Source of the DNA: Dehalococcoidia bacterium
GTDB taxonomy: Bacteria; Chloroflexota; Dehalococcoidia; Lucifugimonadales; QGNO01
Direction of reading: 5' to 3'
NCBI GenBank assembly: GCA_965197965.1
Contig: OZ240235.1
Location: forward strand, 549,820 to 613,819
Length of the DNA: 64,000 nt
The translations under genes were made by a program, and so were the position numbers. The notes below the pieces were generated by a model. That model saw only the letters and a list, made by a program, of their open reading frames with translations, was not told where the DNA came from and ran no database searches. Positions 29,953-51,407 of this stretch are shown piece after piece (the first letter of the stretch is position 1; the number at the start of each line of letters is the position of its first letter).

Positions 29953-31905
29953 TCATAGCCCTCCCATCACCACTGCCGTCGTACTCTCGCTGGTCAGCAA
30001 CTCAAAATTGCCGGCGTCGTCTGAGAACCGGACCCGCACCTTCATGACCTTGCCGTTGTCGGAAGCCTGGAGCGTGTATGTGGAACTCGTCGCCCCGTCG
30101 ATTTCCGTGTCGTCAGCCAGCCACTGGTATCTGTAGGACACGTTGTCCAGGCCGTCGGCGTCGGAGATTCCATCCGTGCTTGCCGTCAGGGTTTGTCCCA
30201 CCTGCGGCGTTCCACTGATGGTGGGGGCACCCGTGGCGGGGGAGTTGGAGACCTGCTGCTGTTCCACCACGCGGGCAGGTGTTGCCGTGACTTCAGTAGA
30301 TGGGTCACCATCGCCAACACCGTTCGCCGCGATGACCCGCACAGTATAAGAGACGCCGTTGGTCAAACCTGTGATGATATGTGAAGTTGCGGTGACCGTT
30401 TCCTCAGAGACGTCGTCCGGAGTTTCCCAGCTGTCCGAATCTTCCTTCCACTGCACTTTGTACCCGGTGATTGCCGTGCCGCCGTTGGAACGAGGCATTT
30501 CCCAGGACAGGGCAAGTTGAGCGTCACCAGGAGTGGCCGTCAGGTCATACGGGAACCGCGGCGAGTTAAAGACTAAGCCGAACCAGCGGTACCGCCTCGT
30601 CTCCATACCAAACCGTATCCCACCGGCGGCGTCACTGTCCTGGACCGCGGCGGACAGCAAGCCGACCTTGCCGTTGAACTGTATTTCACCGGCGAAGATT
30701 GGGGTCGCCGTAATCACTCCACTCGAAGTGTCTCCGGCGTTGAGGGTGACCGTCGTGCTGGACAGCGTAACTCTCTCGCCCCAAAGGGTGACTTCCAGGT
30801 TGGATGGAGCGGGTTTACTGAGGGTGACCTCCCAGGCAAAGGTATAGAACTCCTCGGCATCGCGCGATTCCAAACTTACCTCGATAGCGGTTACCGCCAT
30901 CTCTGTGACTTCAGCCGACGCTGCGTTGTCACCGTTCTGGTTGAATGCCAGCACTCGCACCGTGTAGGCGACGCCATCGGTCAAATCTGTGATGGTGTGC
31001 GACATTCCGGTCACTGTAGCCTCGGACACGTCGTCCGGAGTTACCCAGCTGCCCGAATCCTCCTTCCACTGCGCTTTGTATCCTTGTATCGGAGAACCGC
31101 CGTCGCTGGCAGGCGCTTCCCAGGACACGGCAAGTTCCTGGCTTTCACCCGAAGAGACCTTCAGGTTCCGAGGCGCGTCCTCCGCTGTGGTCGCCACTAC
31201 CGCAGTCGCAGCGCTCGTGAGCGTTTCGTTGTTGTCGGCGTCGTCGGTGAAGTTCACCTGCACCTTGATGGTCTTTCCCATGTCTTCGTCGGACAGCGTG
31301 TATGTGGCCTCCAACATGCCCCAAATGTCTATGTCCCCGACCCCCCGCGCGCCCGGAATGTCTGTGTCTTCAACCCCGTCGTTGGATATCCACTGATAGA
31401 TAAGGAAGAATCGGCTGTACCCCTCTTCGTCCTCGATGTCCGACATGGAGACTGTGAGTGTCTGCCCTGCCTGTGCTACTCCAATGATGACAGGCGCGCC
31501 CGTCGCGGGCGTGTTCGCAGCGCGGGTCACCGTCACGGTGTACGTCTGTGTGGTGTTCCCGTCTTCGGCGGTTACTTCTACTGTGATGACGTTGCTACCT
31601 ACACTCAGTGAAACGGTGCCATCCGTGTCTTCAACTCCGCCGAGCTTTGTGACGTAGCTGGCCCCTGAGTGGCTCACGGTGGGAGTGACGGTGGTCTGTT
31701 TCACGCCATTGGCGACGCTGGCAGTGTAAGAAGTGGTGCCTGATGCGAATGTGGCCAAGTCCACGTCACTCAGCGTCAGGTCACTGAGCGTGGCGTCGCT
31801 GCTCTGGCCCTCGGCCAGGACCGTATGGGTGAGGAAGACCAACCCCACCGCGAGGGCAATGAGCAAGATTCGAACAGTTAGGCTGATTCGCTTTGTTGTG
31901 CCCAT
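29953..31905 (-). CDS. Secreted protein: cadherin-like beta-sandwich + 2 FN3 + 2 'YQW' modules
   Basis: 650 aa with a signal peptide. ATLSDLTLSDVDL...TTQTYTVTVTR is a cadherin-like beta-sandwich pattern. Two FN3-like units are present (SWE(A/M)P...GG..I.GYK.QWKEDS.SW...YTVRV.A.N). Two ~88-aa YQW modules are present. It ends AVVMGGL-TGA. Confidence 0.75.
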   Translation of the reverse strand: MGTTKRISLTVRILLIALAVGLVFLTHTVLAEGQSSDATLSDLTLSDVDLATFASGTTSYTASVANGVKQTTVTPTVSHSGASYVTKLGGVEDTDGTVSLSVGSNVITVEVTAEDGNTTQTYTVTVTRAANTPATGAPVIIGVAQAGQTLTVSMSDIEDEEGYSRFFLIYQWISNDGVEDTDIPGARGVGDIDIWGMLEATYTLSDEDMGKTIKVQVNFTDDADNNETLTSAATAVVATTAEDAPRNLKVSSGESQELAVSWEAPASDGGSPIQGYKAQWKEDSGSWVTPDDVSEATVTGMSHTITDLTDGVAYTVRVLAFNQNGDNAASAEVTEMAVTAIEVSLESRDAEEFYTFAWEVTLSKPAPSNLEVTLWGERVTLSSTTVTLNAGDTSSGVITATPIFAGEIQFNGKVGLLSAAVQDSDAAGGIRFGMETRRYRWFGLVFNSPRFPYDLTATPGDAQLALSWEMPRSNGGTAITGYKVQWKEDSDSWETPDDVSEETVTATSHIITGLTNGVSYTVRVIAANGVGDGDPSTEVTATPARVVEQQQVSNSPATGAPTISGTPQVGQTLTASTDGISDADGLDNVSYRYQWLADDTEIDGATSSTYTLQASDNGKVMKVRVRFSDDAGNFELLTSESTTAVVMGGL

Positions 31906-31918
31906 ATCTAGTCTCCTT

Positions 31919-33232
31919 CTACAGGCCTCCCACGAGCGTCAGGTCACTGCCGGCGACTATCTCAAGACCTATGAGCCTGGTCCCACTCTTAGCAACCGAA
32001 TCGACGCTGACCGTGACCGTGCCGGAGGCCGTCACGGTGATGGTCTCGCTCTCCAAGGCGCCGCGAGCGATTGTGACAGTCTCGGCGGAAAGCGTGCCTC
32101 CTATGGCCGAAAGGGTTACCGACAACGAAGACGGCGCTCCCTGGTCGATACTGACGACCACACCGGCGCCTTTCTTTTCCAACTCCGCGGTGATGGTGAA
32201 CGGCGCCCCGGGGTTTTGGTCGAATTCCACGCTATCCAGATTTCCGAGGCCTTCGAACACGCCTGCGGGCAATGTTGATATCTGGTTATGACTCATGACT
32301 AAGGAATTCAAATCGCCCAGACCCTCGAACGCGCCTGAGGGCAACGCCGTGATTTTGTTGTTGAATAGGGTCAGTTGCTGCAGTTCGCCAAGGTCGCCGA
32401 ATACGCCCGAGGGCAACGCCGTGAGCTCGTTCCTGCTCAGGTACAACCACGTCAAATTGCCGAGGCCGTCGAACACCCCCTCGGGCAACGCGGTGATCTT
32501 GTTCTGGTGCAGGTTCAGGGCCATCAGGTTGGTGAGCCCGTCGAACACCTCCTCCGGCAATGCAGCGACCGAATTCCTGGGGAGCTCCAGTGAGTTGAGG
32601 CTAGTTAGCCCATCGAACACTTCCTCCGGGAGCGCGCTGACCTTGTTGGCGGTGAATGTGAGATCCTTCAGGTTGGTCAGGCCATCGAATATTTCCTCAG
32701 GCAGCGCCGTAAGACCGTTCTGGTACAGCTTCAGGTTCTGTAGGTTGGTCAGGCCGTCGAACAGGTTCTCCGGGAGCGAGCTCACCTCGGTGAAGGTCAG
32801 GTTCAGGCGTTTGAGTTCGGTGAGTCCGGAGAAGATGTCCTCGGGCAGCGAGGTGATCTGGTTGTCGTCCAGTTTCAGTTCCTGCAACCCGCTGAGACCG
32901 GCGAAGTCCCCGGACTTGAGGGAGGTCACCCCCATATTGGACAGAGCAAGCGTCCCGCTTATCCCTGACAGGTTGGCGTCGGTGACGTCCCCGCAGGCGG
33001 TAACGTCTGACAGCTTGGCAAGGATGGCGTCCTGGACCTTCTGGGTGCGGCCGCAGATACCCGGCGTGGGAGTGGGAGAGGGTGTGGGGGTAACGGCTTG
33101 CGCCAGGGCCATGCCGTGATTCGTGGGGAGGGCGAGACCTGCCGCCAGTGCGGCAGCGACCGCAAGAGCCGCGAGCAGGATAGCTGCACGCTTCAAGCTG
33201 ACCCAGCTCGTCAATACGGTCAATCTGCTCAT
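31919..33232 (-). CDS. Secreted leucine-rich-repeat (LRR) protein
   Basis: 437 aa with a signal peptide. It has the Cys-containing cap GICGRTQKVQDAILAKLSDVTACGDVTDANLSGIS and about 11 LRRs (L..L.L..N.(I/L)(T/S)(S/A)LPE..F.GL). The C-terminal beta-rich cap is NPGAPFTITAELEKKG.... It ends LTLVGGL-TAG. Confidence 0.8.
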   Translation of the reverse strand: MSRLTVLTSWVSLKRAAILLAALAVAAALAAGLALPTNHGMALAQAVTPTPSPTPTPGICGRTQKVQDAILAKLSDVTACGDVTDANLSGISGTLALSNMGVTSLKSGDFAGLSGLQELKLDDNQITSLPEDIFSGLTELKRLNLTFTEVSSLPENLFDGLTNLQNLKLYQNGLTALPEEIFDGLTNLKDLTFTANKVSALPEEVFDGLTSLNSLELPRNSVAALPEEVFDGLTNLMALNLHQNKITALPEGVFDGLGNLTWLYLSRNELTALPSGVFGDLGELQQLTLFNNKITALPSGAFEGLGDLNSLVMSHNQISTLPAGVFEGLGNLDSVEFDQNPGAPFTITAELEKKGAGVVVSIDQGAPSSLSVTLSAIGGTLSAETVTIARGALESETITVTASGTVTVSVDSVAKSGTRLIGLEIVAGSDLTLVGGL

Positions 33233-33272
33233 CGATTCTCCTGAATGTCAGGCCGATGCAATTGGCAGCTCC

Positions 33273-34415
33273 CTACAACCCGCCCATAACCACCGCCGTG
33301 GTTCCCTCGCTTGTCAGCGATTCTTCGTAGCCCGCGTCGTCCGTGAAGCTCACTCGCACCTTGATGACCTTGCCGTTGTCCGATGACTGGAGCGTGTAGG
33401 TGGAGCTCGTAGCCCCATCGATTTCGGTGTCCCTGCTCGACAGCCACTGGTAGCTGTAGGACACGTTGTCCAAGCCGTCAGCGTCAGAGATTTCAGACGT
33501 GTCTGCTGTCAAAGTCTGTCCCACCTGCGCCGTTCCGCTGATTGTCGGCGCACCAGTGGCGGAGGAGTTCTGAACGGTAACCGTCAGGTAGTACAGGTGG
33601 CCTGCGCCGTTGTTTACGTTTCCTGTATTGATGCCGATGCCAAGCCGGTTTTCGCCCCGGCCCAGATTAATCTGAAAGCCATTTGTGTCGTCGTCGGCAT
33701 CGTTGAGGACGATACCGGTAGTGGTCCCGTTCCCGTAGGAGTAGTTGCAGGTTCCTTGCAACGGTCCACCCCAGCAACCTGAGATTACTCCCCAGATCGG
33801 GTTCTTGACGAAGACGGTAAAGTAGCCGGTCAAGACGGTGGATTCCAAGGTGATGGATTCAGTATCGGTGGGGACTTCAGCGTCATATCGATTTATTCCC
33901 CTATCAAAGGAAGGGTTCAGAGTTCCAGAACTGATGGTCAGCGCCGTCAGTGGCGCCGACGAGTAAGTGCCTTCCCTGAGATTGAACGCCCCCATGGCAA
34001 TTTGAGTTGAGGAAACGAGGTTGTTCGCTTCGTTTTCGCCGCAGTACAGTTCCACTTCGACTTTCGGAAGTCTGGTAACGCCGCTCGGACTAAGGGGGAT
34101 TTCATGGGAGATTGCCTTGGTTGCCTCATTGCTGCCGGAGGCCACTGAGCCGAGGTGGGTGCGGGACGTCTCCGCGTCGTTGCTAGGGGGTCTGACCGCC
34201 AGGTAGAGGTTGTAATCGGATGAGCAGTTGTCCGGATCTGACCAGGAGACGGTGTCATCGGCGTCAGTTATCACAACCGTGATGTACGCTTCGGGGTCAG
34301 ACCCGCTCTGAGCGGCAACGTGAGAGGGACTACCCGACACCACAAGAGTCAGCCCTAACACGGCCCCAATGAGGGCCACCACTATCGGAATGCCTGCTCG
34401 ATTCACTATGTTCAT
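33273..34415 (-). CDS. Secreted protein: unknown N-domain + cadherin-like beta-sandwich + C-terminal YQW module
   Basis: 380 aa with a signal peptide. LTALTISSGTLNPSFDRGINRYDAEVPTDTESITLE is present. The C-terminus ATGAPTISGTAQVGQTLTADTSEISDADGLDNVSYSYQW...KVIKVRVSFTDDAGYEESLTSEGTTAVVMGGL is followed by TAG. Confidence 0.65.
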   Translation of the reverse strand: MNIVNRAGIPIVVALIGAVLGLTLVVSGSPSHVAAQSGSDPEAYITVVITDADDTVSWSDPDNCSSDYNLYLAVRPPSNDAETSRTHLGSVASGSNEATKAISHEIPLSPSGVTRLPKVEVELYCGENEANNLVSSTQIAMGAFNLREGTYSSAPLTALTISSGTLNPSFDRGINRYDAEVPTDTESITLESTVLTGYFTVFVKNPIWGVISGCWGGPLQGTCNYSYGNGTTTGIVLNDADDDTNGFQINLGRGENRLGIGINTGNVNNGAGHLYYLTVTVQNSSATGAPTISGTAQVGQTLTADTSEISDADGLDNVSYSYQWLSSRDTEIDGATSSTYTLQSSDNGKVIKVRVSFTDDAGYEESLTSEGTTAVVMGGL

Positions 34416-34474
34416 CTCGCCTCTCTCCTATCTCAGGTTTGATCTTCGGACAGACGTCTGCCTGGTTCCGATTC

Positions 34475-36442
34475 CTACAGCCCACCCATCACCACTGCTG
34501 CCGTTCCTATGCTTGTCAGGGACTCCTCGTTGCCCGCGTCGTCGGTGAAGGTGACCCTGACCTTTATGACCTTGCCGTTGTCGGTTGACTGGACGGTGTA
34601 GATGGAGTTCGTCGCGTCGTTGATTTCGGTATCGTCAGCCAGCCACTGGTAGCTATAGCTCACGTTGGTCAGACCGTCGGCGTCGGAGATCCCGGACGTG
34701 CTTGCCGTCAGGGTCTGGCCAACTTGTGCGGTTCCACTAATGGTGGGAGCGCCTGTTGCCGGAGTGTTGGCCTGCGACGCAGACGAGAGGGTGAGGCTAT
34801 CGCCAAGGCCGGTCTGGATGCCCTGGTATGAACCCTCCAGGAAGGCGGAGGCAACCACGGAGACCGTCACGCCGTCGTCATCGCTTATCGGGGAGGTGAT
34901 GACACCGCTCTCCAGATCGCCGCCGTTTACGGAGACGATCAGGTTGGAAGAAAGCACCCCGGCTTTGAAGTTCAGGGTGACCGACATGTTGAAGGGAGCG
35001 CCCTCGGCGATCTTGACCACCACGCCGTTGTCGCCCCGCTGCTCCAACTCCGCCGTGAACGTGAAGGGTGTTCCGGGGTTGTTGCCCATGTAGAGGGTTT
35101 CCAGGTCGCCAAGGTCCTGAAAAATCCCATCGGGCAATGCATTCAGTTTGTTGTTGGTGAATATCAACCTGTCGAGGTTGGTGAGGCCGTCGAACAGGTC
35201 CTCGGGCAATGCAGTAATCGGGTTGGTGGAGAGCACTAAGTTTTCCAGGCTGCTGAGGCCGTCGAACACGTCCTCCGGCAGTGCAGTCAGCTGGTTGTTG
35301 TGCAGACGCAGGTCCGTCAGGCTGGTGAGCCCGTCGAATACCTCCTTGTGCAGCTCCCTTATCTGGTTAGTTCCCCCCAAGGCCAGGATTTGCAGGCTGG
35401 TCAGTCCGTCGAATACGTCCTCGGGCAGTGCCGTCAGGTCGAGGAACAGGTACAGCCGTTGCAGATTGCCGAGTCCCTCGAATACGTCCTTGGGCACCGA
35501 CCTGATGTAGGAGGAGCCGGTCGGTTGAAGCCACGTCATGGAGCTGAGTCCAGCGAAGTCCCCGGACTTGATGGACGTGGCGCTTGTGAAGCTGACGACC
35601 AACTTGGTTATGCCGGCCAGGTGCGCGTCCGTGACGTCGGCGCAGTCGCTGACGTCGGACAGCAGGGCCAGAATGGCGTCCTGCACCTCCTGGGTCCGGC
35701 CGCAGATGCCCAGAGGAGCGGCCAGCGTGAGTTCAAGATCGTCGGCCTCTTCCCACGTGAGGCCAAAGTAGCTTGAATAGTCGGTGGCGCTGAAGTCGGA
35801 CGACTCCACGCTCACGGTCACCTGCACGTCGGCGGTCTGTACCCGGCTCTGGTCGCTGGGGGAGAGGCTCACAGCATCGCTCTTGATGCTGCCTCCCTCA
35901 ACTGTGACCGCCGTCGAGGACAGTGTTCCGCCCTCGGCGGACAGCGTGATTTCCATGTCGAAGGGCGCGCCCTCGGCGACCTTGACCACCACCGAGTTCG
36001 AGCCCTCCTGCTCCAGCGTCATCGTGAGGCTGAAGGGAGACCCCGTATTGAAGTTCAGCCACAGGGTGTCGAGGCTCTCGAGGCCCTCGAAGATGCCGTC
36101 CGGTAGATCGCTCAGGTCGTTGGTGTCGAGATAGAGCTGCTCCAGGCCGGACAACCCCTTGAAGTCTCCGGTCTTGAGCGCAGAAATGCTCTTGTCCGAA
36201 AGGGTCAGGGCGCCCGTTATGCCTGCCAGGTGTGAGTCGGTGACATTGGCGCATTCGCTAACGTCGGACAGCTTGGCGAGAATGGCATCTCGCACTTCCT
36301 GGGTGCGCTCGCAGATGCCGGAAGACTGGGCGAGGACCGTGCTGCTCGGCGGGATGGACACTGAGGCGGCGACGACGGCCATCACCAGCAGCGCCATGGC
36401 TACCGCAGTCTTGGTTCGCATTTTAGGTCTTCGAATTGTCAT
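34475..36442 (-). CDS. Secreted double-LRR protein with C-terminal YQW module
   Basis: 655 aa with a signal peptide. It has two GIC(E/G)RTQEV(R/Q)DAILA.LSDVS.CA.VTD.HLAGIT caps, each followed by LRRs and an NPG(T/S)PF(T/S)... cap, then a YQW module. It ends AAVVMGGL-TAG. Confidence 0.8.
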   Translation of the reverse strand: MTIRRPKMRTKTAVAMALLVMAVVAASVSIPPSSTVLAQSSGICERTQEVRDAILAKLSDVSECANVTDSHLAGITGALTLSDKSISALKTGDFKGLSGLEQLYLDTNDLSDLPDGIFEGLESLDTLWLNFNTGSPFSLTMTLEQEGSNSVVVKVAEGAPFDMEITLSAEGGTLSSTAVTVEGGSIKSDAVSLSPSDQSRVQTADVQVTVSVESSDFSATDYSSYFGLTWEEADDLELTLAAPLGICGRTQEVQDAILALLSDVSDCADVTDAHLAGITKLVVSFTSATSIKSGDFAGLSSMTWLQPTGSSYIRSVPKDVFEGLGNLQRLYLFLDLTALPEDVFDGLTSLQILALGGTNQIRELHKEVFDGLTSLTDLRLHNNQLTALPEDVFDGLSSLENLVLSTNPITALPEDLFDGLTNLDRLIFTNNKLNALPDGIFQDLGDLETLYMGNNPGTPFTFTAELEQRGDNGVVVKIAEGAPFNMSVTLNFKAGVLSSNLIVSVNGGDLESGVITSPISDDDGVTVSVVASAFLEGSYQGIQTGLGDSLTLSSASQANTPATGAPTISGTAQVGQTLTASTSGISDADGLTNVSYSYQWLADDTEINDATNSIYTVQSTDNGKVIKVRVTFTDDAGNEESLTSIGTAAVVMGGL

Positions 36443-36790: not shown

Positions 36791-39700
36791 CTACTGCCCC
36801 GGCCCGGAAACAGTGAACACCAGACTATTGGACAGCTTTCTGCCGTCCTCCGTGCAGACGGCTCCCTGAGCCTCGCAGTCCGTCGTGACGGGCAGAACGA
36901 TGGTCACATCCTCGCTGGAGTCTGGCCTCACCATTATTCGCCACTTGATGTTGCTTGGCTTGTCCATGCGTTGAGCCTTTAGAATGGACCCACCGGTCAC
37001 AGTAAAGGCATGGAACTTTAGGGTCTTGTAGCTGAGCGGAATTTCCTCGCTGAACCGGATGTCGAATGTGAAGACATTCGAGGCGCCGTGGTGGCCGGCC
37101 ACGGGGAACACCAGGCGGACGGTCAGCGGCGTGGGCTTCGCCGCCACCGCCGCCGTCGCATCGCTGGTCAGCGTCTCATCGTTGTCGGCATCGTCGCGGA
37201 AGGAGACCCGCACTTGGATTGTCTGCCCTTTCTGCATGTCCTTGAGGGTGTAGCTGGAGCCGGTGGCCCCCGAGATGTCCGACCCTCCGGCGGTCCACTG
37301 GTAGCTGTACGAGACGTTGGTCAGCCCGTCCTGGTCGGCGATGTTAGACGTGTCAGCGGTCAGCGTCTGGTCCACCTGGGGCGTCCCGCCGATGGTGGGC
37401 AGTCCGGTGGCCGGAGAGTTGGGCTTGGCCGCAACCACCCCTGTCGCCGCGCTGGTCAGCGATTCGATGTTGTCCCGGTCGTCGGCGAATCTCACCCTTA
37501 CCGTGACGGTCTTGCCCTGCTCGTTGGCGGTGAGGGTGTAGGTCGAGCGGGTGGCCCCGATGGTCAGGCCCCCGGCCCTCCACTGGTAGAAGAAGGTGGC
37601 GTTCGTTATCCCGTCGAGGTCGGAGATGTTCGAGGTGTCCGCCGTCAGCGTCTGGCCCACGCGGGCCGTACCGTCGATGGTGGGCTTGCCGGTGGCCTGA
37701 CGGTTGGGTGCCGCAACCACCGCGCCCGTCGCATCGCTGGTCCGGGCCTCTGCGTTGTTCCGGTCGTCGATGAAGAACACCCTGACCTGGATGGTCTGCC
37801 CCTGCTCGCTGGAGGTGAGCAGGTAGCTGGGTCCGGTGGCTCCGTCGATGTCCGTACCGCCGGAAATCCACTGGTAGCCGTAGGACACGTTGGTCAGCCC
37901 GTCCTGGTCGTCTATGGGCGAGGTGTCCGCAGTCAACGTCTGGTCCACCTGGGGGGTCCCGCCGATGGTGGGCTTGCCCGTGGCCGGGGTGTTCTCGGCT
38001 GGCTCAATCACTCTGACGGCAACCTCATCCCCCTCGGACAAGTCCAGTCCCGGGTCGTTCCACTGGAACTGGATGATGGAGATGGAGTCCCTCTCCAGGG
38101 TCGATGCGTCGGTAGAGGCGAATTCGTCCGTCCCAACCACTAGGACAAAGTCGGCAGCCAATTTTGGCATCACTGAGAGAATCAGCTTGCCGTTCAGAAC
38201 CCCCAAGGCCCTGACGGTGTAGCTGGCATCGTCCAACGTGATGGTGTCGGACGAGAGAGCACCCAGGGTGTTGGTTTCCGGCAAAGACAGGAATGTCGTA
38301 TAGCCGGCAAAATTCTCTCCGCCCCCTACCGTCAAGGTCGCGGACCATATCGGTTCTTCCTGTGGTGTTCCAGAGGCTTCGGCCGACGTGGGAACGCCAA
38401 ACACCCAGGGGCGGGCCTGTTTGATGGACAGAACATCGTCGCTGGTGATCTTGAACTCGATTTCCATTGCGAAGGGTTCGTCGGGTCCGGGGTTGTACAG
38501 ACCCTCGAAATGGTCATGGATATCCTGGAGATGCCGGCGCAACTGGTCAATTTGAGCATCGCTCATGAGGAGTTGTCCTCGCGGCACCTGGTTGGAGGTT
38601 ACCAGGGTGGTGTATGAACCGGACAGGTCCAACAGGATTTCCTCGGGCACCGAGTGTGCGTCGGGATTGGTGACCAGGTCCTCACCCAGTTGCGTGTTGA
38701 CGTAGTAGCTCCCGTCCGTTTCGTAGATAGGGTCGAAGCTGACGGCCACGCCGTTGGCCAGCTCGTCCGAGTAGTTGGGATGGACCAGCACCCCCATCGC
38801 CGTCGCCAGGTGGTCGATGCGGTGGAACTCGCGTTCAGTGAATGCCCGGAAGTTCCACAGGCTGGCCCACACCCCTTTGATGGACTTGTCGATGCCGTCC
38901 TCCTCCGTCTCCTCCGGGTCCTGGGTCTTGGAGTCGTACAGCCCGGCGCCGCTGAAGCCCGGCAGGTCTTCGTTGTTGGTGCTGGACCGGTATCGCAGCG
39001 ATTGCCCTTCAGGGTAGGTGGCGTGCATCTCCTCCAGCGCGTCGATGATCCAGTCGGGCGTCTCCCCCTTCTTTATCTTCTTGCGGAGTTTCTTGAGTTC
39101 TTTCTCTTGAGTGTCATAGTCCGACTGGAAGTCCGGGTCTTCCAGCATCTCTTCGATATCGTCATAGAACCCGTTGTGCTTCATGAACTCGTCGTAGAAG
39201 TAGAAGGGCACCACGAACCCGTCGGGGACGGTTCCGTCGGGAAAACCCAGCGTCCGCAGCACGGCCACGTTGGCCGCCTTGACTCCAAACGCATTCCAGT
39301 CGTCGAAGCCAATGTCGTCCAGGTCGGTGATCTGGGTGACTGTGAGGTCCCGTTCCGGCGTCTGGGTTCCGGGAGGGCGCGAAGCGGCGAAGTAGGCCTC
39401 GACTTCGGCGGGAGTGGCGGCGCGGATGGAGTAGCCGTCCGCCGTGACGCTGTAGTGGACGTATCTGCCGATGAGATCATCGATGTCGCCGTCGTCTAGG
39501 GCGTCGCGAATGAAGGCGTTGGGGACACCGTCCTGGACGGCCCGCAGGTTGACGTGGGAAAGCGGTGTCTGGGGTACGGTGGTGATGAGGCCGGCGACCC
39601 GGGAAAGCTCGTTGGGGATAGTCTCGTAGATCACCACGTCGCGCGGGTCGGGGCGTTCCTCCAGCGACATGAGCCTGAGGAAACCGTACCCTTCCCCAAC

Positions 39701-42700
39701 GTTGAGGGGGAGGAATGGAACATCTGGCAGGATGTCCTCTCTCAACACCACATTGATCCGGGAATCATCGTAGAGGGCCCGTTCTCTGTGATAGAGCGGC
39801 AGGGCTCTCCTCGGCATGGGGTAATAGGCAAGGTTGTCATCAAGCAGCGCCATACTGGCCGCCAAAACCTCATACGAACGGGCCACATGGCCGAAGGGGT
39901 ATGCATCCATAGGCTGGAACTGGTAAAGGTAGACGCCCAGGGAACCATCAGGAGCAACCACATTGGGGTGGTATATGATCTCGCCGCCCATGTACCCCTG
40001 TCCCCAGAGTGGGTCGTCCCAGAGACCGATTGCATCCCCGAAATCGGGATGTATTCGGTGGGTCTCGGTGTTCATGAAATAGATGCCCATGTTGCCGGTA
40101 GACACGCCGATAATGTAGAACTTGACAAACTCCAGGTCCTGGAGATGGCGGTGATAGGGAACGTCTCTGCCCTTGTAGGAAAGCGCCTCAAATGTCTCAC
40201 GGTCTGGAATGGCAACAGCGCCATCAGGAAAAGGGACCGCCCTAGCGGGGTTCAGCGGGTTCATCGTCACCGGGTCCCCCAATTCGGTGATGTCGTCGAT
40301 GCAGTCGTTGTCGATGTCGGCCGGGTCGGCAATGAGGAACTTTTCCACCCGGTAATGTTCCTTGGGGAGCGGGGACAACTGCTCAGTCAGCGTTGTTGTG
40401 CCGTCTTCGCCCAGGGTCACCGAGACCGGGAACTCTCGTTCGGAGTCCAGGGCGGGCCGCACGTAGAGCACAAAGTATTCCTCGGTGGTGGACTCGACGA
40501 TAGCGGGAACGGCTTGAACCTCTACCGCCGTTGCCGCCGTGGCATGCTCGCCGACCGTGCACGCCACGACTGATACCTTGACCGTCCTATCACTGGTCAG
40601 CGCCTCCAGGCTGCCTGCGTCGTCATAGAACGACACCCGCACGCTAATGGTCTTGCCAAGGTCAGCCATAACCAGGGTGTAGGTCGAAGCCGTCGCTCCT
40701 TCGATGTCGGAGGAATTGCTCCCGAAGGGGCTGCGGACCCACTGGAAACTGAACGCGTCATCGTCGAGCCCGTCGGGGTCGGCGACCCCTGACACGTCCG
40801 CCGTCAGCGATTCGCCGACTTGGACGGCGCCGCTAATGACGGGCGCTCCCGTCGCGGCACGGTTGGCGGCCACCCTGAGAATCCTGTCGACGCCGGGTCT
40901 GTTGGAGGTGGCGATGTACAGAGCCCCGTCGGGGCCGAGCACCGGGGTCCGCAGTCGGCCGTGGCTGCCGTCGAGCTCCGGAACGACGATCTGACCCGCG
41001 AAATCGCCCTGTTCGGTGAACTCGAAGACCCGCAGCGACTTCGTCTTGAGCGTGGCCACCGCGAGTCGCCCTTCCCACTCCCCCCATTGGGGGCCCTGCA
41101 GGAAGACGGCCCCGCTGGTCGCCAGGGTGGGGAATCCCGAGGACCATCTGGCCTGGCGGGCAGATGGGAACTTCGCCAGGTCAGTCATGGGGACGCCGGC
41201 CTCGTCGGAATAGTCGTAGAAGACCAACGTGCCGTCGTCCGGGATCGGGTCCCAGCCGTAGTTGCCCCCTGGTGCGAGCAGATTGATCTCGTCGTCGTGT
41301 TTCGGGCCGTGCTCCACCAGCCACATCTGATCCGTGCCCGGGCGCAGAGCCAGGCCCTGGGGGTTGCGGAATCCGTAGGCGTACACCGGCGAGGAGGCGT
41401 CGAATGGATTGCCGGGCGCCCCGGCGCCCGTCCGTGGGTCTACGCGGAGGACCTTGCCGCCCAAGGACGTCAGGTCCTGCGCGCCCGTTACCACCCGCCC
41501 GTCGCCGGTCGCGATCCATAGATATCCCTCCGGACCGAAAAGCAGCCGGCCTCCCGAGTGCCAGGGGCCCGGACCGATCGGCATGCCCTTTACCAGGGGA
41601 TCGACGACGCGTGTGGCTTCGTCGTAGTCCGCGTCGATCGTCCAGGCGATCACCTGCATCTCGCGTCCGGCGTGCCCCTGGAGCGTGTAGAACCGCCGGT
41701 TGGTCGTAAAGTCCGGGTCCACGGCCAGCGCCTGCAGACCGGCGAACCCGTCGACCAACAGATCTCCGAGATCCGCGGCGACCCGCTTGACGGTGCCGTC
41801 GGTCAGCCTCGCGTTCAGCACGCCGGCGCGCTGGGTGAACAGCATCGTCCCGTCTGGGGTGAAATCAATGCCCCAGGGGTAGGACAGGCCCGTGACTATT
41901 TCCGTCACCGTCAGTTCCGGACCCGGCTCGCGGGCGCCCACGACGGCGGGCGAAACAGCTTCCGCGGACTTGCCGGGGCCCTGCCCGTCGGTGTACGACG
42001 CCTCGGCCTTGAGCAGCATCCCTTCGTCTTCTTCAGTTGGAACGTAGCTGTCTCCGTCGTCGTAGGCCTCGACGCCGGTCCAGGCGGTTCCGTCGGAGGA
42101 CCTGGCCCAGCTCCAAGAAACCGCGCCCGAAGACGCCGCAGGGCCCGAGCCGCCGCCCTCGAGGCCGTCGGGATCGCTCAGCGCGGCGCTGACCACCGTC
42201 CCGACCCTCGGCCTCGCCGGAAAGAGCGAAACGGTTCCGGGCCAATCCGCCGCCTTGATAGCCTCGGTGGCCTCGCTGGTCAGCGTTTCATAATTGCCAC
42301 GGTCGTCGACGAACGCCACCCGCACTTTGATCCGCTTGCCCATATCCTCGGCGACGAGCGTGTAGGTGGGCGAGCCGGTCCCGATGTTCGTCTCGGTCGC
42401 GCCGTCGACCCGCATCCACTGGTACGAGTAGGCCGCCCGGGTCAGCCCGTCGTCGTCCGACACGTCGGAGACCGCCGAGGCGAGCGTCCCCTTCACCTGC
42501 GGCGTGCCCGTGACCGTCGCCTCGCCGGCAGCCGGGTTGTTGATGAAGGAGCCTCTCGCCTCGATCTTGTAGGAAAACGCGTCGGAGGCCCATCCCTGAG
42601 CAGCGGCCTGAGGAGAATATGTCGCGCTTCCGTCCGCGATGGACCACCCCTCCGCGGCTCCCGTGTCTTCGGAGCCTCTCGCCGTTCCACTGATGGCGAT

Positions 42701-45700
42701 GGCGCCGGAACCGGTGACGCGGACCCTTTCGACGACCACGAAGTAGGTCCTCTCTTTCACGAGAGCCGGGCAGGTCGTCCCAGAGGCCGGAGCGGCGAAG
42801 GTGTTCACGCTCCGCTCGGACAGGCTCGCCAGGGCGATCAGCGTGCAGAGAGCGTCGCCCGGGACGCCGCCGCCGTCCGCGTTGAGCGTCACCTCGAGGT
42901 CGGACGACGTGTCCGAAACTTCGCCGAACTCGATCCCTACGGACGCCAGCGCGTACCCGGCTTTGCTGGTCCCGGTGGTGAACGCCTGGGCCCTCTTCGC
43001 GCCGGCCGAGCCCAGGTCATGGCCGACATCGCCGGACTGCCCCGTGTTGCCGACCAGCGCGGCGGCGGTCTCCGCGTCTTCGACGAACGGCCGAACGACA
43101 CCGCCGACGCCATGATAGGTGTAGATCATGGCATCGTCGGCGTCGACGACGTAGAAGGTCTCCCCGTCCGACCAGATGCCGGAGGCGTGGTCGTTGTCCT
43201 CGTGGAGCGGAAAGTCGTACCCCGCCTCGGTTCCGTCGGACAGTTTCACGCTCCGCACCGAGGCGTCGTTCGAGGCGAACCTGACGCCCCACATCGTCCG
43301 TCCGTCGGTGAAGAGGCCCCTCAGCTGGCCCCTGCCGGGGATCGTCAGCTTCCGGGACGTGTCCAGCCTCCCGTATTCGTCATCCCGCGTCTCGGGGTCG
43401 TCGAACAGACGGAAGGCGTGCGCGTGCGACGTGGTGTTGGTGATCCACAGGTGACGGCCGTCCGTCGCCATGCCGCGCACTATGAACACTCCCCCCGCGA
43501 CGTTCAAGCCCCCGTAGACGAAGTCCCGATCTTCCGCGCGCGTGAAACTCGTCAGGTCGTAGCCGAAGACGTCCCGGCTGGCGCCGTCAAGGGACTCTTC
43601 GGCCACGTACAGGCGGGGGCCGTGACCGGTGACGTAATGGTCCTCCTGGCCGAGGCTCGGAACGTCCCAGCCGGGGTCCCGGGTCCCGTACTCGCTGACC
43701 GCTGTGCCGGGGTTGTCCCACAGCTTGTAGGCGAAGACCTGCCGGGCGCTGCTGTCGCCGACCCACAGCGTTTCGCCGTCCGACCAGATGCTCTTCGGGC
43801 TCGCGTTCTCCGGATGCAGAGCAAAATCTTCGTCCTGGATCCATTCCCTTTGAACCAATGGTCTGCCGATCCACAAATGCATGTCACTGCCGCGGTCGGT
43901 GCGGATCCCCGACGTGGAACCTCCTGCAGGCAACAGAAAAGCAGCGGAGTCGATCTCTATCGTGACGGGATGGTGCCCGTGCGCACGAACATCGACAACG
44001 TCCGAATTTGAACTGCCCGAGGCGATGGTGACGGTCTCGGCGGACAGCTCTCCGTTACGGGCCGACAGTTCGACCTTCAGGTCGAGCGGCGTCGCGCCTT
44101 CGGCCAATCGGACCACGACCGTATCGTCTCCCCGCCGCTCCAGCTCCGCGGTGAACGTGAAAGGTGCGCCAGGATTGTCGCCCGCGTCGAGATCCGTCAG
44201 CCCCGAAAGACCTTCGAAGAGGCCGGTCGGCAGATCCTTGAGCTCGTTTCCCGAAAGGTCCAGCTCAGCGAGACTTCCGGTCTCGGCGAACACGTCCTCC
44301 GGCAAGCTCTTCAGGTCGTTCCCCGCGAGCGACAGTCTCTGCAGGTTGCCGAGACCGCCAAACACCCCGGCCGGCAGCTCGTCTATCGAGTTGGCGGACA
44401 GGTCCAGCTCCTCGATTTCGACCAGGTCGTCGAAAAGGCCGGCCGGTAGGTCCGAGAGCCCGTTGCCCGTGAGCGACAGCGAGACGAGTGCGTCCAAGTT
44501 TCCTAGCACGCCGTCCGGCAGCCACTCCAGGCGGTTCGCCGACAGGTCCAGAACGTTCAGATTCGCGGTTTGGCCGGCGAACGTCCCGTCAGGCAGTTCG
44601 TTCAGAAGGTTTCCCGACAGATAGATCTCCTCCACCGTCCGAAGGTCTTCGAAGAGGCCCTCCGAAACCGTCTCGAGGAAGTTTCTGTTCAGGTCCAGGG
44701 CGCGCAGCGCGTGCAGGTCCTGGAAATCCCCGGCCTGCAGGGCCGACAGTCCTCTCCCCTGAAGGTACAGCCCGGGCGTGACGTCGGGGCCGAAGTGCTG
44801 GGAGCCGGTCCAAGTCCTGAGCCTCGTCTCGGAAACCTCCGAGCAGTCGCCGACGCCGGGCATCCCGGCGACGATGGCCGCCATCACCGCAGGCGTCCGG
44901 TCGCAGATGCCGGGGGCGCCGACCCGGCCCGTCGGCTCGCTGGTAAGCGACTCTTCGTTGCCGGCGCCGTCGGTGAAGGACACCCTGACCTTGACGGCCC
45001 TGTCCCGGTCGCCGGGGACGATGGTGTAGGTTGAATCGGTCGCGCCCGCGATGTCCGTCTCGGCGTTCCCGTCGTTCGAAACCCATTGATATTCGAAGAT
45101 GGCGGCGTCCAGCCCGTCCGCGTCGGCGATGGAGCGGGTGCCCGCCGCCAGCGTCTCGTCCACTCGGACCGCGCCGGTTATCGTCGGCGCGCCCGCGGCA
45201 GGATTGTTCCAGTCGTATGCGTAGAGCTTAGCGTCATCGCGGGACGCCACCCACATCGTGGACCCGGCCGACCAGATGCCCTCGTAAGATTCATCGTCGG
45301 CGTCCAGCGCGAAGTCCTTGCTGCCGTCCCAGCTCCGGTCCGACATCCGGTAGGCGTACAGCTTGGAGTCCCGCCAGTCCGAAACCCACATCGTGGATCC
45401 GTTCGACCAGATGCCCATCGGAGAGTCGTGGCCGGGGCCCAGCGTGATGTCCTTCTCGAAGTCCCAGGCCCTGGTCGACAGGTCGTAGGCGAAGACCGTG
45501 TCGTTGCCGGTGTCCGCCACCCACATGGTGGTCCCGTCCGACCAGATGCCCTCGGGAAATCTGTTGCCGGCGGCGAACAACGTGTTGAAGTCCTTGCCCG
45601 AGTCCCGGCTCCGGTCCGACATCCGGTAGGCGTACAGCTTGGCGTCGGTGAAGTCCGACGCCCACATGGTGATCCCGTCCGACCAGATGCCCACCGGAGA

Positions 45701-45976
45701 GCCGTTGGCGGCGTCCAGGGTGAAATCCTTGCCCGAGTCCCGGCTCCGGTCCGACATCCGGTAGGCGTACAGCTTGTGATCCTCGAAGTCCGCGACCCAC
45801 ATGGTGGTCCCGTCCGACCAGACTCCGGTCGGATAGCCGTTGGCGGCGGCCAGAGTGAAATCGCTGCCGGAGTCCCGGCTCTGGGCGTGGGCATCAGGAG
45901 TGAGAAGCAGGGCGGCGATGACCGTCAGTCCGATGAGCAGCAGTGGGAGTGGAGCAAGACGCCGGGAGGCGGTCAT
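36791..45976 (-). CDS. Giant secreted mosaic protein (3061 aa): propeller repeats, YQW modules, LRR, PQQ-type sugar dehydrogenase propeller, PEP-utilising/PPDK_N-like domains
   Basis: The signal peptide is MTASRRLAPLPLLLIGLTVIAALLLTPDAHAQ.
- Five ~46-aa repeats (GIWSDG.TMWV.D....KLYAY) at ~45210-45890.
- LRR block at ~44000-44915.
- GSDH-like propeller at ~40870-41910 (GLSYPWGIDFTPDG...HSGGRLLFGPEGYLW...GFRNPQGLA...GGNYGWD).
- PEP-utilising His-domain-like plus PPDK_N-like region at ~38600-39700.
- Three tandem YQW modules at ~37130-38000.
- A unique C-terminal domain. Confidence 0.85.
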   Translation of the reverse strand: MTASRRLAPLPLLLIGLTVIAALLLTPDAHAQSRDSGSDFTLAAANGYPTGVWSDGTTMWVADFEDHKLYAYRMSDRSRDSGKDFTLDAANGSPVGIWSDGITMWASDFTDAKLYAYRMSDRSRDSGKDFNTLFAAGNRFPEGIWSDGTTMWVADTGNDTVFAYDLSTRAWDFEKDITLGPGHDSPMGIWSNGSTMWVSDWRDSKLYAYRMSDRSWDGSKDFALDADDESYEGIWSAGSTMWVASRDDAKLYAYDWNNPAAGAPTITGAVRVDETLAAGTRSIADADGLDAAIFEYQWVSNDGNAETDIAGATDSTYTIVPGDRDRAVKVRVSFTDGAGNEESLTSEPTGRVGAPGICDRTPAVMAAIVAGMPGVGDCSEVSETRLRTWTGSQHFGPDVTPGLYLQGRGLSALQAGDFQDLHALRALDLNRNFLETVSEGLFEDLRTVEEIYLSGNLLNELPDGTFAGQTANLNVLDLSANRLEWLPDGVLGNLDALVSLSLTGNGLSDLPAGLFDDLVEIEELDLSANSIDELPAGVFGGLGNLQRLSLAGNDLKSLPEDVFAETGSLAELDLSGNELKDLPTGLFEGLSGLTDLDAGDNPGAPFTFTAELERRGDDTVVVRLAEGATPLDLKVELSARNGELSAETVTIASGSSNSDVVDVRAHGHHPVTIEIDSAAFLLPAGGSTSGIRTDRGSDMHLWIGRPLVQREWIQDEDFALHPENASPKSIWSDGETLWVGDSSARQVFAYKLWDNPGTAVSEYGTRDPGWDVPSLGQEDHYVTGHGPRLYVAEESLDGASRDVFGYDLTSFTRAEDRDFVYGGLNVAGGVFIVRGMATDGRHLWITNTTSHAHAFRLFDDPETRDDEYGRLDTSRKLTIPGRGQLRGLFTDGRTMWGVRFASNDASVRSVKLSDGTEAGYDFPLHEDNDHASGIWSDGETFYVVDADDAMIYTYHGVGGVVRPFVEDAETAAALVGNTGQSGDVGHDLGSAGAKRAQAFTTGTSKAGYALASVGIEFGEVSDTSSDLEVTLNADGGGVPGDALCTLIALASLSERSVNTFAAPASGTTCPALVKERTYFVVVERVRVTGSGAIAISGTARGSEDTGAAEGWSIADGSATYSPQAAAQGWASDAFSYKIEARGSFINNPAAGEATVTGTPQVKGTLASAVSDVSDDDGLTRAAYSYQWMRVDGATETNIGTGSPTYTLVAEDMGKRIKVRVAFVDDRGNYETLTSEATEAIKAADWPGTVSLFPARPRVGTVVSAALSDPDGLEGGGSGPAASSGAVSWSWARSSDGTAWTGVEAYDDGDSYVPTEEDEGMLLKAEASYTDGQGPGKSAEAVSPAVVGAREPGPELTVTEIVTGLSYPWGIDFTPDGTMLFTQRAGVLNARLTDGTVKRVAADLGDLLVDGFAGLQALAVDPDFTTNRRFYTLQGHAGREMQVIAWTIDADYDEATRVVDPLVKGMPIGPGPWHSGGRLLFGPEGYLWIATGDGRVVTGAQDLTSLGGKVLRVDPRTGAGAPGNPFDASSPVYAYGFRNPQGLALRPGTDQMWLVEHGPKHDDEINLLAPGGNYGWDPIPDDGTLVFYDYSDEAGVPMTDLAKFPSARQARWSSGFPTLATSGAVFLQGPQWGEWEGRLAVATLKTKSLRVFEFTEQGDFAGQIVVPELDGSHGRLRTPVLGPDGALYIATSNRPGVDRILRVAANRAATGAPVISGAVQVGESLTADVSGVADPDGLDDDAFSFQWVRSPFGSNSSDIEGATASTYTLVMADLGKTISVRVSFYDDAGSLEALTSDRTVKVSVVACTVGEHATAATAVEVQAVPAIVESTTEEYFVLYVRPALDSEREFPVSVTLGEDGTTTLTEQLSPLPKEHYRVEKFLIADPADIDNDCIDDITELGDPVTMNPLNPARAVPFPDGAVAIPDRETFEALSYKGRDVPYHRHLQDLEFVKFYIIGVSTGNMGIYFMNTETHRIHPDFGDAIGLWDDPLWGQGYMGGEIIYHPNVVAPDGSLGVYLYQFQPMDAYPFGHVARSYEVLAASMALLDDNLAYYPMPRRALPLYHRERALYDDSRINVVLREDILPDVPFLPLNVGEGYGFLRLMSLEERPDPRDVVIYETIPNELSRVAGLITTVPQTPLSHVNLRAVQDGVPNAFIRDALDDGDIDDLIGRYVHYSVTADGYSIRAATPAEVEAYFAASRPPGTQTPERDLTVTQITDLDDIGFDDWNAFGVKAANVAVLRTLGFPDGTVPDGFVVPFYFYDEFMKHNGFYDDIEEMLEDPDFQSDYDTQEKELKKLRKKIKKGETPDWIIDALEEMHATYPEGQSLRYRSSTNNEDLPGFSGAGLYDSKTQDPEETEEDGIDKSIKGVWASLWNFRAFTEREFHRIDHLATAMGVLVHPNYSDELANGVAVSFDPIYETDGSYYVNTQLGEDLVTNPDAHSVPEEILLDLSGSYTTLVTSNQVPRGQLLMSDAQIDQLRRHLQDIHDHFEGLYNPGPDEPFAMEIEFKITSDDVLSIKQARPWVFGVPTSAEASGTPQEEPIWSATLTVGGGENFAGYTTFLSLPETNTLGALSSDTITLDDASYTVRALGVLNGKLILSVMPKLAADFVLVVGTDEFASTDASTLERDSISIIQFQWNDPGLDLSEGDEVAVRVIEPAENTPATGKPTIGGTPQVDQTLTADTSPIDDQDGLTNVSYGYQWISGGTDIDGATGPSYLLTSSEQGQTIQVRVFFIDDRNNAEARTSDATGAVVAAPNRQATGKPTIDGTARVGQTLTADTSNISDLDGITNATFFYQWRAGGLTIGATRSTYTLTANEQGKTVTVRVRFADDRDNIESLTSAATGVVAAKPNSPATGLPTIGGTPQVDQTLTADTSNIADQDGLTNVSYSYQWTAGGSDISGATGSSYTLKDMQKGQTIQVRVSFRDDADNDETLTSDATAAVAAKPTPLTVRLVFPVAGHHGASNVFTFDIRFSEEIPLSYKTLKFHAFTVTGGSILKAQRMDKPSNIKWRIMVRPDSSEDVTIVLPVTTDCEAQGAVCTEDGRKLSNSLVFTVSGPGQ

Positions 45977-45991
45977 GAATCACCCCTAACC

Positions 45992-46253
45992 GGCCCGGAA
46001 ACAGTGAACACCAGACTATTGGACAGCTTTCTGCCGTCTCCGGTGCAGACGGCCCCGTCAGCGTCGCAGTCCGTCGTGGCGGGCAGAACGATGGTCACAT
46101 CCTCGTTGGAGTCTGGCCTCACCATTATTCGCCACTTGATGTTGCTTGGCTTGTCCATGCGTTGAGCCTTTAGTATGGATCCACCGGTCACAGTAAAGGC
46201 GTGGAACTTTAGCGTCTTGTAGCTGAGGGGAATATCCTCGCTGAACCGGATGT
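45992..46253 (-). pseudogene. Remnant copy of the 3' end of the giant gene (C-terminal domain only)
   Basis: About 260 bp is nearly identical by eye to 36801-37062. Track ORF 45973..46191 reads (M)TGGSILKAQRMDKPSNIKWRIMVRPDSNEDVTIVLPATTDCDADGAVCTGDGRKLSNSLVFTVSGP, against the genuine C-terminus ...VTGGSILKAQRMDKPSNIKWRIMVRPDSSEDVTIVLPVTTDCEAQGAVCTEDGRKLSNSLVFTVSGPGQ. Its TGA overlaps the ATG of the 3061-aa gene (ATGA). Confidence 0.75.
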
Positions 46254-51041: not shown

Positions 51042-51097
51042 AGCAAGGCAGGACTGCCCCACGAGAAATAACCGCCGGACATCCCTGGCAGCAGCCT

Positions 51098-51191
51098 TAT
51101 CACACTGTCGCGGCAGCAATTTTGTTAGCTTTTAGAGAGTGTGTTTCTGCAACTTTTCGCTCTTGCTGACATAAACGGAAGTGGCTAGATT
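51098..51191. repeat. Conserved intergenic cassette, copy C (right half only)
   Basis: ATCACACTGTCGCGGCAGCAATTTTGTTAGCTTTTAGAGAGTGTGTTTCTGCAACTTTTCGCTCTTGCTGACATAAACGGAAGTGGCTAGATT is near-identical to copies B and D. It retains the rightward promoter candidate TTGCTG (51163-51168), 17 nt, then TAGATT (51186-51191). It lacks the leftward half. Confidence 0.8.
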
Positions 51192-51329
51192 ATCGTTCAG
51201 GCCCTGGCCGACGTCCCTCGCCCATGCTAAGACAGGCTCTGTTAGCCGCAGTTTCTCAGCTCCGCTCGCTGCCCAGGCACGGTAATCGTCAAGCTTTGCC
51301 CGGGGCGTTCTCAAGTCGCTCGGTGATGA

Positions 51330-51407
51330 ACTTGCGCTGAATACGTCGAAGGGCGATTCGGCCCCGGTTCGGGACAATGGTACGAAGCCCAACTCGTCTA
51401 TGATCAA
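51330..51407 (-). pseudogene. Short IS21-family IstB (helper ATPase) fragment
   Basis: The minus-strand sequence MIIDELGFVPLSRTGAESPFDVFS resembles the Walker-B region of IstB (..IIDE(L/W)GY.P......LF.(V/L)...). The remainder of track ORF 51132..51407 does not look like IstB. Confidence 0.35.

Follow-up and report, generated by a model that had tools for sequence, protein, structure and literature searches.

The swivelling-histidine dikinases, which include phosphoenolpyruvate (PEP) synthase (PEPS), pyruvate phosphate dikinase (PPDK), plant and algal alpha-glucan,water dikinase (GWD) and rifampin phosphotransferase (RPH), are textbook intracellular ATP-dependent enzymes. In StGWD1 the domains run in the order CBM45-CBM45, central domain, His domain and ATP domain, and the His domain, built of 3 helices and 7 strands, has its catalytic histidine opening a short helix (PMC13553574). 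The crystal description of GWD1 gives a central domain that is all-alpha, ~440 residues long and built of 20 helices. Here, we analyzed a stretch of 64,000 nucleotides from a Dehalococcoidia bacterium (GenBank assembly GCA_965197965.1, contig OZ240235.1, positions 549,820 to 613,819; hereafter, the window), which encodes a giant protein on its minus strand (36791..45976). Within this protein lies a segment of ~730 residues that belongs to a new, very large family, an exported and horizontally mobile variant of the swivelling-His dikinases with an orphan acceptor domain. Our reading of the whole gene, to which we assign a probability of roughly 0.6, is that its product is an exported display protein of adhesin-like character from a sponge-type symbiont, carrying a pyrroloquinoline quinone (PQQ)-type glucose/sorbosone dehydrogenase (GSDH) together with an active dikinase module of GWD order that phosphorylates an acceptor.

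The first-pass annotation of the window, made from the letters alone, had placed a "~400-aa unassigned region" between the dehydrogenase and the putative His segment; instead of a spacer, this region turned out to be the conserved N-terminal half of the mobile ~730-residue module. When residues 1766-2560 of the giant were used as the query in a homologue search, more than 2495 proteins matched, and the 120 listed were 60-97% identical over ~90% of the query. Since the homologues match over this much of the query, the N-terminal ~400 residues, the His segment and the ATP-grasp domain travel together. We also compared the N-terminal 415 residues of the module with 1.84 billion cluster representatives: 1648 clusters (representatives at 50% identity) matched at E<=1e-3 and 400 at E<=1e-30, and the best 150 representatives, in proteins of up to 3769 residues, all spanned the N-terminal and His regions jointly. 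Stand-alone module proteins of ~790 residues exist (P0035, P0079, P0080 and P0095), while two complete modules are found per polypeptide in P0123 (3227 residues) and P0124 (2025 residues). No description of this module family was found in the literature.

The C-terminal part of the module is a PPDK_N ATP-grasp domain, as had been proposed (PF01326, E 7e-28). The match scored 98-104 bits, where the cut-off is 27, and covered profile positions 4-309 of 328 (E 1.3e-29 on a sub-segment), and PF01326 was matched by all 27 divergent family representatives. The enzymatic region had been bounded at 38600-41910; the ATP-grasp domain continues past the lower bound to about 38396-38405 on the minus strand. 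Both in sequence and in fold, the domain matched those of PEP synthase, rifampin phosphotransferase and HpeI in the PDB, and a Foldseek search with the full-module model gave 2ols, 5hv1 and 9goj at E 2e-13 to 4e-11, with only ATP-grasp relatives retrieved. We found K2233 (in FGVKAAN), R2330 (in R-x-R2330-SSTNNED), the E2505-x-E2507 pair and the Q2520-x-R2522 pair to be invariant in 36 close and 27-28 divergent members. These positions align with the invariant K367, D651, E653, Q665 and R667 of an alignment of real GWD sequences, and the lysine and the RSS motif align with the lysine and RSS-x-x-ED of PEPS 9dae. We take K2233, R2330, E2505, E2507, Q2520 and R2522 to be the equivalents of K22, R92, D321, E323, Q335 and R337 of C. 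symbiosum PPDK. The motif RYRSSTNNEDLPGFSGAGLYDS (residues 2327-2351, window 38924-38998) occupies a PEPS-like position in the ATP-grasp domain; it is 56% identical to FRSDSNGEDLEGYAGAGLYDS of GWD, which is placed about 85 residues later in that enzyme, and this non-collinear match suggests an element that may have been rearranged between the two clades.

The segment 'GLITTVPQTPLSHVNLRA' had been proposed to be a PEP-utilising His domain of the PF00391 type. However, this assignment did not hold: the segment had no PF00391 match at E<=1, 17 family members had none at E<=10, and its His motif reads PQTPLSH, not GGxTSH. A profile of the His region likewise returned 0 matches among PDB sequences. 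The sole family signals were sub-threshold matches to PF22973 (GWD1_pHisD), the commonest Pfam match of the region (5 of 17 members, best E 0.032), and the profile alignment with GWD. For this alignment, a C-terminal GWD sequence (82% identical to real GWDs) was used as bait only; 18 real GWD sequences were aligned, and all conclusions on GWD rest on these. Using hhalign, the His and ATP parts of the module together aligned with the real GWDs over 385 collinear columns (probability 97.3%, E 2e-11), with 'QTPLSHVNLRAVQD' placed on 'DvlSHVaVRARN' of GWD and the catalytic histidines in register. LSH2141 was invariant in 36/36 close members and also in 27-28 divergent representatives, and His2141 lies at the N-terminus of a predicted helix (346-354 of the model). 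The predicted domain (pLDDT, the model's per-residue confidence score, 52-91) has 7 strands and 3 helices, which together with the His at the helix start is the secondary structure described for StGWD1. Together, the profile alignment and the model suggest that the His domain is probably of GWD type, an assignment that is weakly supported when this domain is taken alone. The placing of the His domain before the ATP-grasp domain, which the first-pass annotation had called atypical, is indeed so relative to PEPS, PPDK and RPH, but it is identical to the order in GWD (PMC13553574).

We then turned to the N-terminal parts of the module, whose division into domains is based on AlphaFold models of the full module and of the N-terminal part plus the His domain. 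The EF-hand-like loop of the predicted beta-sandwich reads D1887-x-D1889-x-D1891-C1892-x-x-D1895-x-x-E1898; its ligand positions are invariant, and 176 of the 191 complete modules have the motif. There are only two cysteines in the module of the giant, C1806 at its N-terminus and C1892 in the Ca loop, and exactly two occur in 136 of the 191 complete modules, as against about 7.6 per 700 residues in GWD. The composition of the module is acidic. For the alpha/beta domain that follows, which is presumed to bind the acceptor, there was no Pfam match, and a profile search of PDB sequences gave nothing meaningful; the model of the N-terminal part plus His domain (pLDDT 84.9) had no Foldseek match at E<0.07 in the PDB or BFVD. 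The N-terminal part combines invariant polar residues with variable, indel-rich loops between conserved blocks. In Foldseek, CBM29, CBM32 and chitosan-binding modules resembled the beta-sandwich, though not significantly. We set aside the weak CBM-like, guanylyltransferase and ligase rows of these searches as non-significant, retaining the CBM-like one as a flagged hint only.

Several features suggest that the module works outside the cytoplasm. The N-terminus of the giant, MTASRRLAPLPLLLIGLTVIAALLLTPDAHA followed by QS, shows n-, h- and c-regions and an AxA site by eye, and the rest of the protein outside the enzymatic part contains LRR_8 leucine-rich repeats, Ig-like AIR9/SCAB/ZirU repeats and a choice-of-anchor R domain, so the first-pass description of a signal-peptide-bearing, adhesin-like host protein stands. 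Of the 261 family proteins, 140 begin with a signal-peptide-like N-terminus, and many of the others are truncated gene calls; in many members the module starts directly after an AxA-Q site. The stand-alone proteins P0035, P0079, P0080 and P0095 have a signal peptide or lipobox of their own. Fusion partners were solely of extracellular type (fn3, cadherin, Ig, PKD, Calx-beta, SWM and RTX), and one sulfatase fusion was present among the family representatives. As judged from sequence, the signal peptides and extracellular-type partners, together with the paired cysteines, the Ca loop and the acidic nature of the module, are hallmarks of extracytoplasmic folding.

The signal peptides of the giant and of the P0017-P0038 group share the pattern S-R-R-(x)-(A/L)-P-L, which is faintly twin-arginine-like. 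A family-wide route by Tat export, with the His charged beforehand in the cytoplasm, was considered and rejected, as other members have signals without RR or lipoprotein signals.

The GSDH-like segment was confirmed by a PF07995 match (E 4.5e-66) of 223.8 bits against a cut-off of 25, over residues 1364-1695 and profile positions 1-328 of 332. Given this and the PF01326 match, both enzyme families named in the first pass other than PF00391 have highly significant Pfam support. The closest PDB relatives of the propeller are the PQQ sugar dehydrogenases 2ism, 3a9g, 7cdy and 2g8s (E 3e-44 to 5e-35), and its relatives also include sGDH 1c9u and the secreted Hedgehog-interacting protein. In a residue-level alignment with 2ism and 3a9g, the motifs WH1473SGGR, GFR1537N1538PQG, EHGPxxDDEIN and GRLR were retained; the catalytic-His motif HSGGR aligns with HSGGR of 2ism and HNGGR of 3a9g, and the one change is from GHRNPQG to GFRNPQG (H to F). 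Of the catalytic residues recommended for checking in the first pass, the putative phospho-His and those of the ATP-grasp domain are all invariant, and the dehydrogenase motifs are kept save for this one position. Members of the GSDH family are periplasmic or secreted, as in A. calcoaceticus sGDH and the periplasmic E. coli YliI. The dehydrogenase half is therefore ordinary and expected behind a signal peptide, and its earlier label as a "cytoplasmic-type" domain does not apply.

A search for homologous fusions, also suggested in the first pass, showed that GSDH and the module have been fused twice independently and in opposite orders, once in the giant and its orthologs P0121 and P0122 and once in P0257. 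The latter (1518 residues) is ~61% identical to residues 1235-2572 of the giant, with the module preceding the GSDH domain. This second fusion hints that the two enzymes may be functionally linked.

Species genomes in GTDB contain at least 578 module loci. Six phyla carry the module, including named sponge-symbiont genera, with identities of up to 84% between them. Besides Dehalococcoidia, it is found in Acidimicrobiia (Ca. Poriferisodalis, Poriferisocius and Aldehydirespirator), in Acidobacteriota (Terriglobia, Vicinamibacterales, Ca. Versatilivorator and Multivorans) and in Latescibacterota, Thermodesulfobacteriota and Binatia, often in several copies per genome. Nearest neighbours frequently belong to different phyla, at 78-84% identity over >600 residues, and we take this as a sign of inter-phylum transfer. 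Poriferisodalaceae and Aldehydirespiratoraceae include sponge-symbiotic lineages in which genes with cadherin, LRR, fn3 and Calx-beta domains are enriched (PMC11706023); the dikinase module is not mentioned in that study.

How might such a module work? By homology, the ATP-grasp domain would bind Mg-ATP through K2233, R2330, E2505, E2507, Q2520 and R2522; His2141 would then attack the beta-phosphate to form E-His~P, with release of AMP and Pi. The His domain would swing to the N-terminal part, formed by the beta-sandwich with its Ca site and the alpha/beta domain, and there pass the phosphate to a hydroxyl of the bound acceptor, the net reaction being ATP + acceptor + H2O -> AMP + Pi + phospho-acceptor. 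Our best guess for the acceptor is a glycan of the host matrix or cell surface, with the cadherin, fn3, Ig and LRR scaffold acting as a tether. The GSDH fusions, the sulfatase fusion, the non-significant CBM likeness and the matrix-binding scaffolds are weak hints towards such a glycan. Because the module appears to be built for extracytoplasmic life, it would depend on host-derived extracellular ATP or act after uptake into host cells. We hold the enzymatic activity of the module, as predicted from its residues, with moderate confidence, and its substrate with low confidence.

Several observations weigh against the reading of an active, exported dikinase. Extracellular ATP is scarce, and within the window no partner that would supply it is evident. 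Activity is deduced from homology and conserved residues, and since the acceptor domain is without recognisable relatives, the substrate class is a guess. The assignment of the His domain is subject to similar reservations: the best PF22973 score was 11.7 bits against a cut-off of 27, the His region alone aligned with the GWDs in the right register but at a probability of 8% (E 0.004), Foldseek gave no match of the domain to solved swivel domains, and the full-module model had low pLDDT in the His domain and no confident interface between it and the ATP-grasp domain. Moreover, signal peptides were assessed by eye and with a crude hydrophobicity script, and the sponge association of the many Dehalococcoidia metagenome-assembled genomes (MAGs) is deduced from co-occurring named taxa rather than from sample metadata.

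Scarcity of extracellular ATP would also suit a module that does not turn over at all, i.e., a degenerate adhesion domain that binds nucleotide, phosphate or another ligand, and both the adhesin-like context and the divergence of the His domain from Pfam models fit such a pseudoenzyme. The first pass had left open whether the domains were degenerate folds or an unusual phosphotransfer module. Pseudoenzymes usually lose catalytic residues, however, whereas here all those examined, including both pairs of Mg/phosphate ligands, are invariant across relatives of 40-97% identity, and the three-part catalytic architecture always travels together; such conservation speaks strongly against a binding-only relic. 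We thus favour the phosphotransfer module and consider the degenerate one very unlikely. If the enzyme is intact and exported, it could instead use essentially water as its acceptor and convert ATP released by the host, which serves as a danger or purinergic signal, to AMP and 2 Pi, dampening host responses. Dikinases slowly hydrolyse E-His~P when no acceptor is present, and pathogens secrete Ndk and other ATP-consuming enzymes; the intact ATP site and His, the exported localisation and the horizontal transfer among lineages that include sponge symbionts would all be in keeping with such a host-interaction factor. Yet the ~270-residue N-terminal part is equally obligatory, given that the best 150 representatives cover it along with the His region, and its confident fold and invariant polar residues are hard to account for if it has no acceptor or binding partner; apyrases or nucleotidases would also be cheaper for the task. 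This makes an ATP-quenching role rather unlikely in our view.

An acceptor could also be small. The nearest solved ATP-grasp domains include those of RPH and HpeI besides PEPS, the RSSxxxED motif sits at the PEPS/RPH position, the indel-rich N-terminal loops are compatible with diversified ligand pockets, and there are several paralogues per genome, all of which would fit a phosphotransferase that inactivates or activates a hydroxylated natural product or phenolic abundant in the sponge holobiont, in the manner of rifampin phosphotransferase, zearalenone phosphotransferase or phenylphosphate synthase. Against this, neither the RIF-binding domain nor any other domain known to bind small molecules resembles the N-terminal part, the long adhesin-like scaffolds suggest an immobile or polymeric target, and the same problem of ATP supply arises, so that we judge a small-molecule substrate unlikely. 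Finally, a very long gene in a MAG-type source sequence could be a mis-assembled or mis-called fusion, or a cytoplasmic protein with a fortuitously hydrophobic N-terminus. This is effectively refuted. The ORF (open reading frame) is uninterrupted from its ATG start over 3061 residues, and all 9 of the 9 peptide strings quoted from it in the first pass were found in place. The ortholog P0121 (3210 residues) is 90% identical to the giant and collinear with it across residues 1-2924, on which ground an assembly chimera was rejected; the module region is 94-96% identical at 11 loci in Dehalococcoidia MAGs, 8 of the 11 on records titled 'chromosome: 1'. Homologues consisting of the module only have signal peptides of their own, and exported proteins typically show Cys and Ca-loop features of this kind.

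The preferred reading, an exported and tethered dikinase that modifies an acceptor, would carry consequences beyond this locus. If the module is active extracellularly, it would represent unrecognised phosphorylation of host or matrix, or removal of ATP, in a very old animal-microbe symbiosis, and a new substrate class and fold for the dikinase superfamily. Of the catalytic modules that lack annotation, it is one of the more abundant in a set of genomes that takes in named sponge symbionts. The cadherin, fn3, LRR and Calx-beta scaffolds on which it rides are the same ones that mark symbiotic lineages (PMC11706023). A wider proposal, that sponge symbionts of at least six phyla share transferred, exported and tethered dikinases which phosphorylate host matrix or surface with host ATP via a new acceptor fold, is tentative, and we would sooner bet against it than for it; if true, extracellular phosphorylation of the host would be a general mechanism of symbiosis. 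The stand-alone homologues of ~790 residues make the module directly testable.

The features of the giant are collected in the table below. Pfam gave nothing convincing for the C-terminal ~80-residue domain, the region after the module or the N-terminal 45-residue repeats. The C-terminal domain holds a Cys pair (..TTDCEAQGAVCTEDG..) and may have a sorting or anchoring role. Tandem repeats of ~45 residues occupy residues ~33-260 and ~690-970 (window ~45200-45880 and ~43070-43900, minus strand). Their pattern, ..DF.L...N..P.GIWSDGTTMWV.D....KLYAY.., has the look of a propeller blade, 15 of 261 module proteins have relatives of them, and the only Pfam traces were spurious ones of NCH3 and SGL.

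Features of the giant gene and of its dikinase module in the window
Feature	Window position	Strand	Basis or remark
Whole open reading frame, exported adhesin-like giant protein	36791..45976	minus	3061 aa; collinear ortholog P0121
Signal peptide, aa 1-31 (MTASRR / LAPLPLLLIGLTVIAALLL / TPDAHA, then Q)	45884..45976	minus	read from sequence
Leucine-rich repeat region, aa ~403-604	44165..44770	minus	LRR_8, E 2.1e-34
Choice-of-anchor R domain, aa 976-1142	42551..43051	minus	NCBIfam NF041539, E 2.4e-20, above cut-off
PQQ-type glucose/sorbosone dehydrogenase beta-propeller, aa 1364-1695	40892..41887	minus	PF07995, E 4.5e-66
Mobile ~730-aa dikinase module, aa ~1806-2527	38396..40561	minus	homologue searches
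Module part 1, small beta-sandwich with EF-hand-like Ca2+ loop	40280..40534	minus	predicted, pLDDT ~95
Module part 2, orphan alpha/beta domain, aa ~1900-2087	39716..40279	minus	predicted, pLDDT 87-97
Module part 3, GWD-type phospho-histidine (swivel) domain (probable), aa ~2088-2199	39380..39715	minus	predicted structure, hhalign
Codon of His2141 (LSH2141VNLRA), putative phospho-accepting histidine	39554..39556	minus	invariant, aligned with GWD His
Module part 4, PPDK_N ATP-grasp, aa 2230-2524	38405..39289	minus	PF01326, E 7e-28
ZirU-family / Ig-like tandem repeats, aa 2744-2925	37202..37747	minus	NCBIfam NF040485, E 2.5e-39, 6 stretches
C-terminal ~80-aa domain, aa 2981-3061	36794..37036	minus	common to 53/261 module-bearing proteins

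The neighbourhood of the giant is an island of genes with LRR, fn3 and cadherin-like domains and of a cadherin giant. This second giant ORF (52362-62072, minus strand, 3236 residues) contains at least 14 cadherin repeats and PepSY- and EF-hand-like traces; with it, the genes of LRR, fn3 and cadherin-like type at 29953-36442 make up an island of 'eukaryotic-like' surface proteins. G+C content is 63-67% in both giant genes (40001-46000 and 50001-62000), compared with 55-60% where the housekeeping genes of the window lie; the raised values could reflect the acidic, Gly/Ala/Thr-rich composition of the repeats or a foreign origin. A second dikinase module was not found elsewhere in the window, and the neighbourhood examined around a stand-alone homologue (L081) contained only one more giant, with Calx-beta and fn3 domains. 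At 9340-10845 (plus strand), a DUF2779/RNase_H_2-like gene lies amid housekeeping genes for a thiolase, adenylosuccinate synthetase, CoA-transferases, MatE and a MacB-like ABC permease.

In comparison with known enzymes, the dehydrogenase half is ordinary. Like the soluble PQQ dehydrogenases of Thermus (2ism), Pyrobaculum (3a9g) and E. coli (YliI, 2g8s), it is a full six-bladed propeller with the shared motifs, and that family is extracytoplasmic as the domain of the giant is; the difference is that the propeller of the giant is one domain within a multidomain protein of 3061 residues.

For the module, GWD offers a catalytic parallel. In GWD, as in PWD/GWD3 and bacterial homologues, the His domain is followed by ~90 residues and then by a C-terminal PPDK_N ATP-grasp domain, as in the module. 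Both share 'LSHV-x-(V/L)RA', where PEPS and PPDK have 'GG-x-TSHAA', and both have 'GAGLYDS' after the RS-x-x-N-x-EDL motif; the chemistry is presumably also the same, via the beta-phosphate and His~P. The likeness ends upstream of the His domain. Neither CBM45 nor CBM20 occurs in the giant or among the 25 commonest Pfam families of 27 representatives, and the upstream part of the module is a predicted beta-sandwich plus alpha/beta domain, in contrast to the all-alpha central domain of GWD1; with hhalign, the N-terminal part of the module did not align with GWD upstream of the His domain (~230 residues of the central domain compared). The RSSxxxED...GAGLYDS element of the module lies about 85 residues earlier than in GWD, at the PEPS-like position, and in contrast to the exported module, GWD resides in plastids or the cytoplasm. 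Four proteins from MAGs of Planctomycetes/Gemmataceae and Nitrospirales (P0328, P0332, P0348 and P0351) are ~48% identical to plant GWD and contain PF22973 and PF01326, from which it follows that true GWD-type enzymes are not confined to plastid-bearing eukaryotes.

With PEPS and PPDK, the module shares a homologous ATP-grasp domain (PF01326 E 7e-28; Foldseek 2ols E 2e-13) in which the nucleotide and Mg ligands are conserved, but its domain order is reversed, PF00391 and the PEP/pyruvate TIM barrel are absent, and it is exported. Curated models agree with this distance: NCBIfam PRK06464 matched over its first ~245 positions only (E 1e-22, 79.9 bits against a cut-off of 598), and the equivalog cut-offs were missed for TIGR01418 (76 against 740 bits) and NF041857 (58 against 999). 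Enzymes of the RPH, HpeI and phenylphosphate synthase type have the ATP-grasp fold in common with the module (5hv1 and 5hv6, E ~2e-12; 9goj, E 4e-11), and RPH also shares the three-part logic of ATP-grasp, acceptor domain and swivelling His domain. RPH, however, runs from ATP-grasp through the RIF-binding domain to the His domain, and the acceptor domain of the module is unrelated to its counterpart there. Because the acceptor and targeting domains of these enzymes are missing from the module and its scores fall below the curated cut-offs, it is GWD-like in its catalytic half, yet not a GWD, a PEPS or an RPH: a complete swivelling-His dikinase with a new acceptor domain, apparently built for export.

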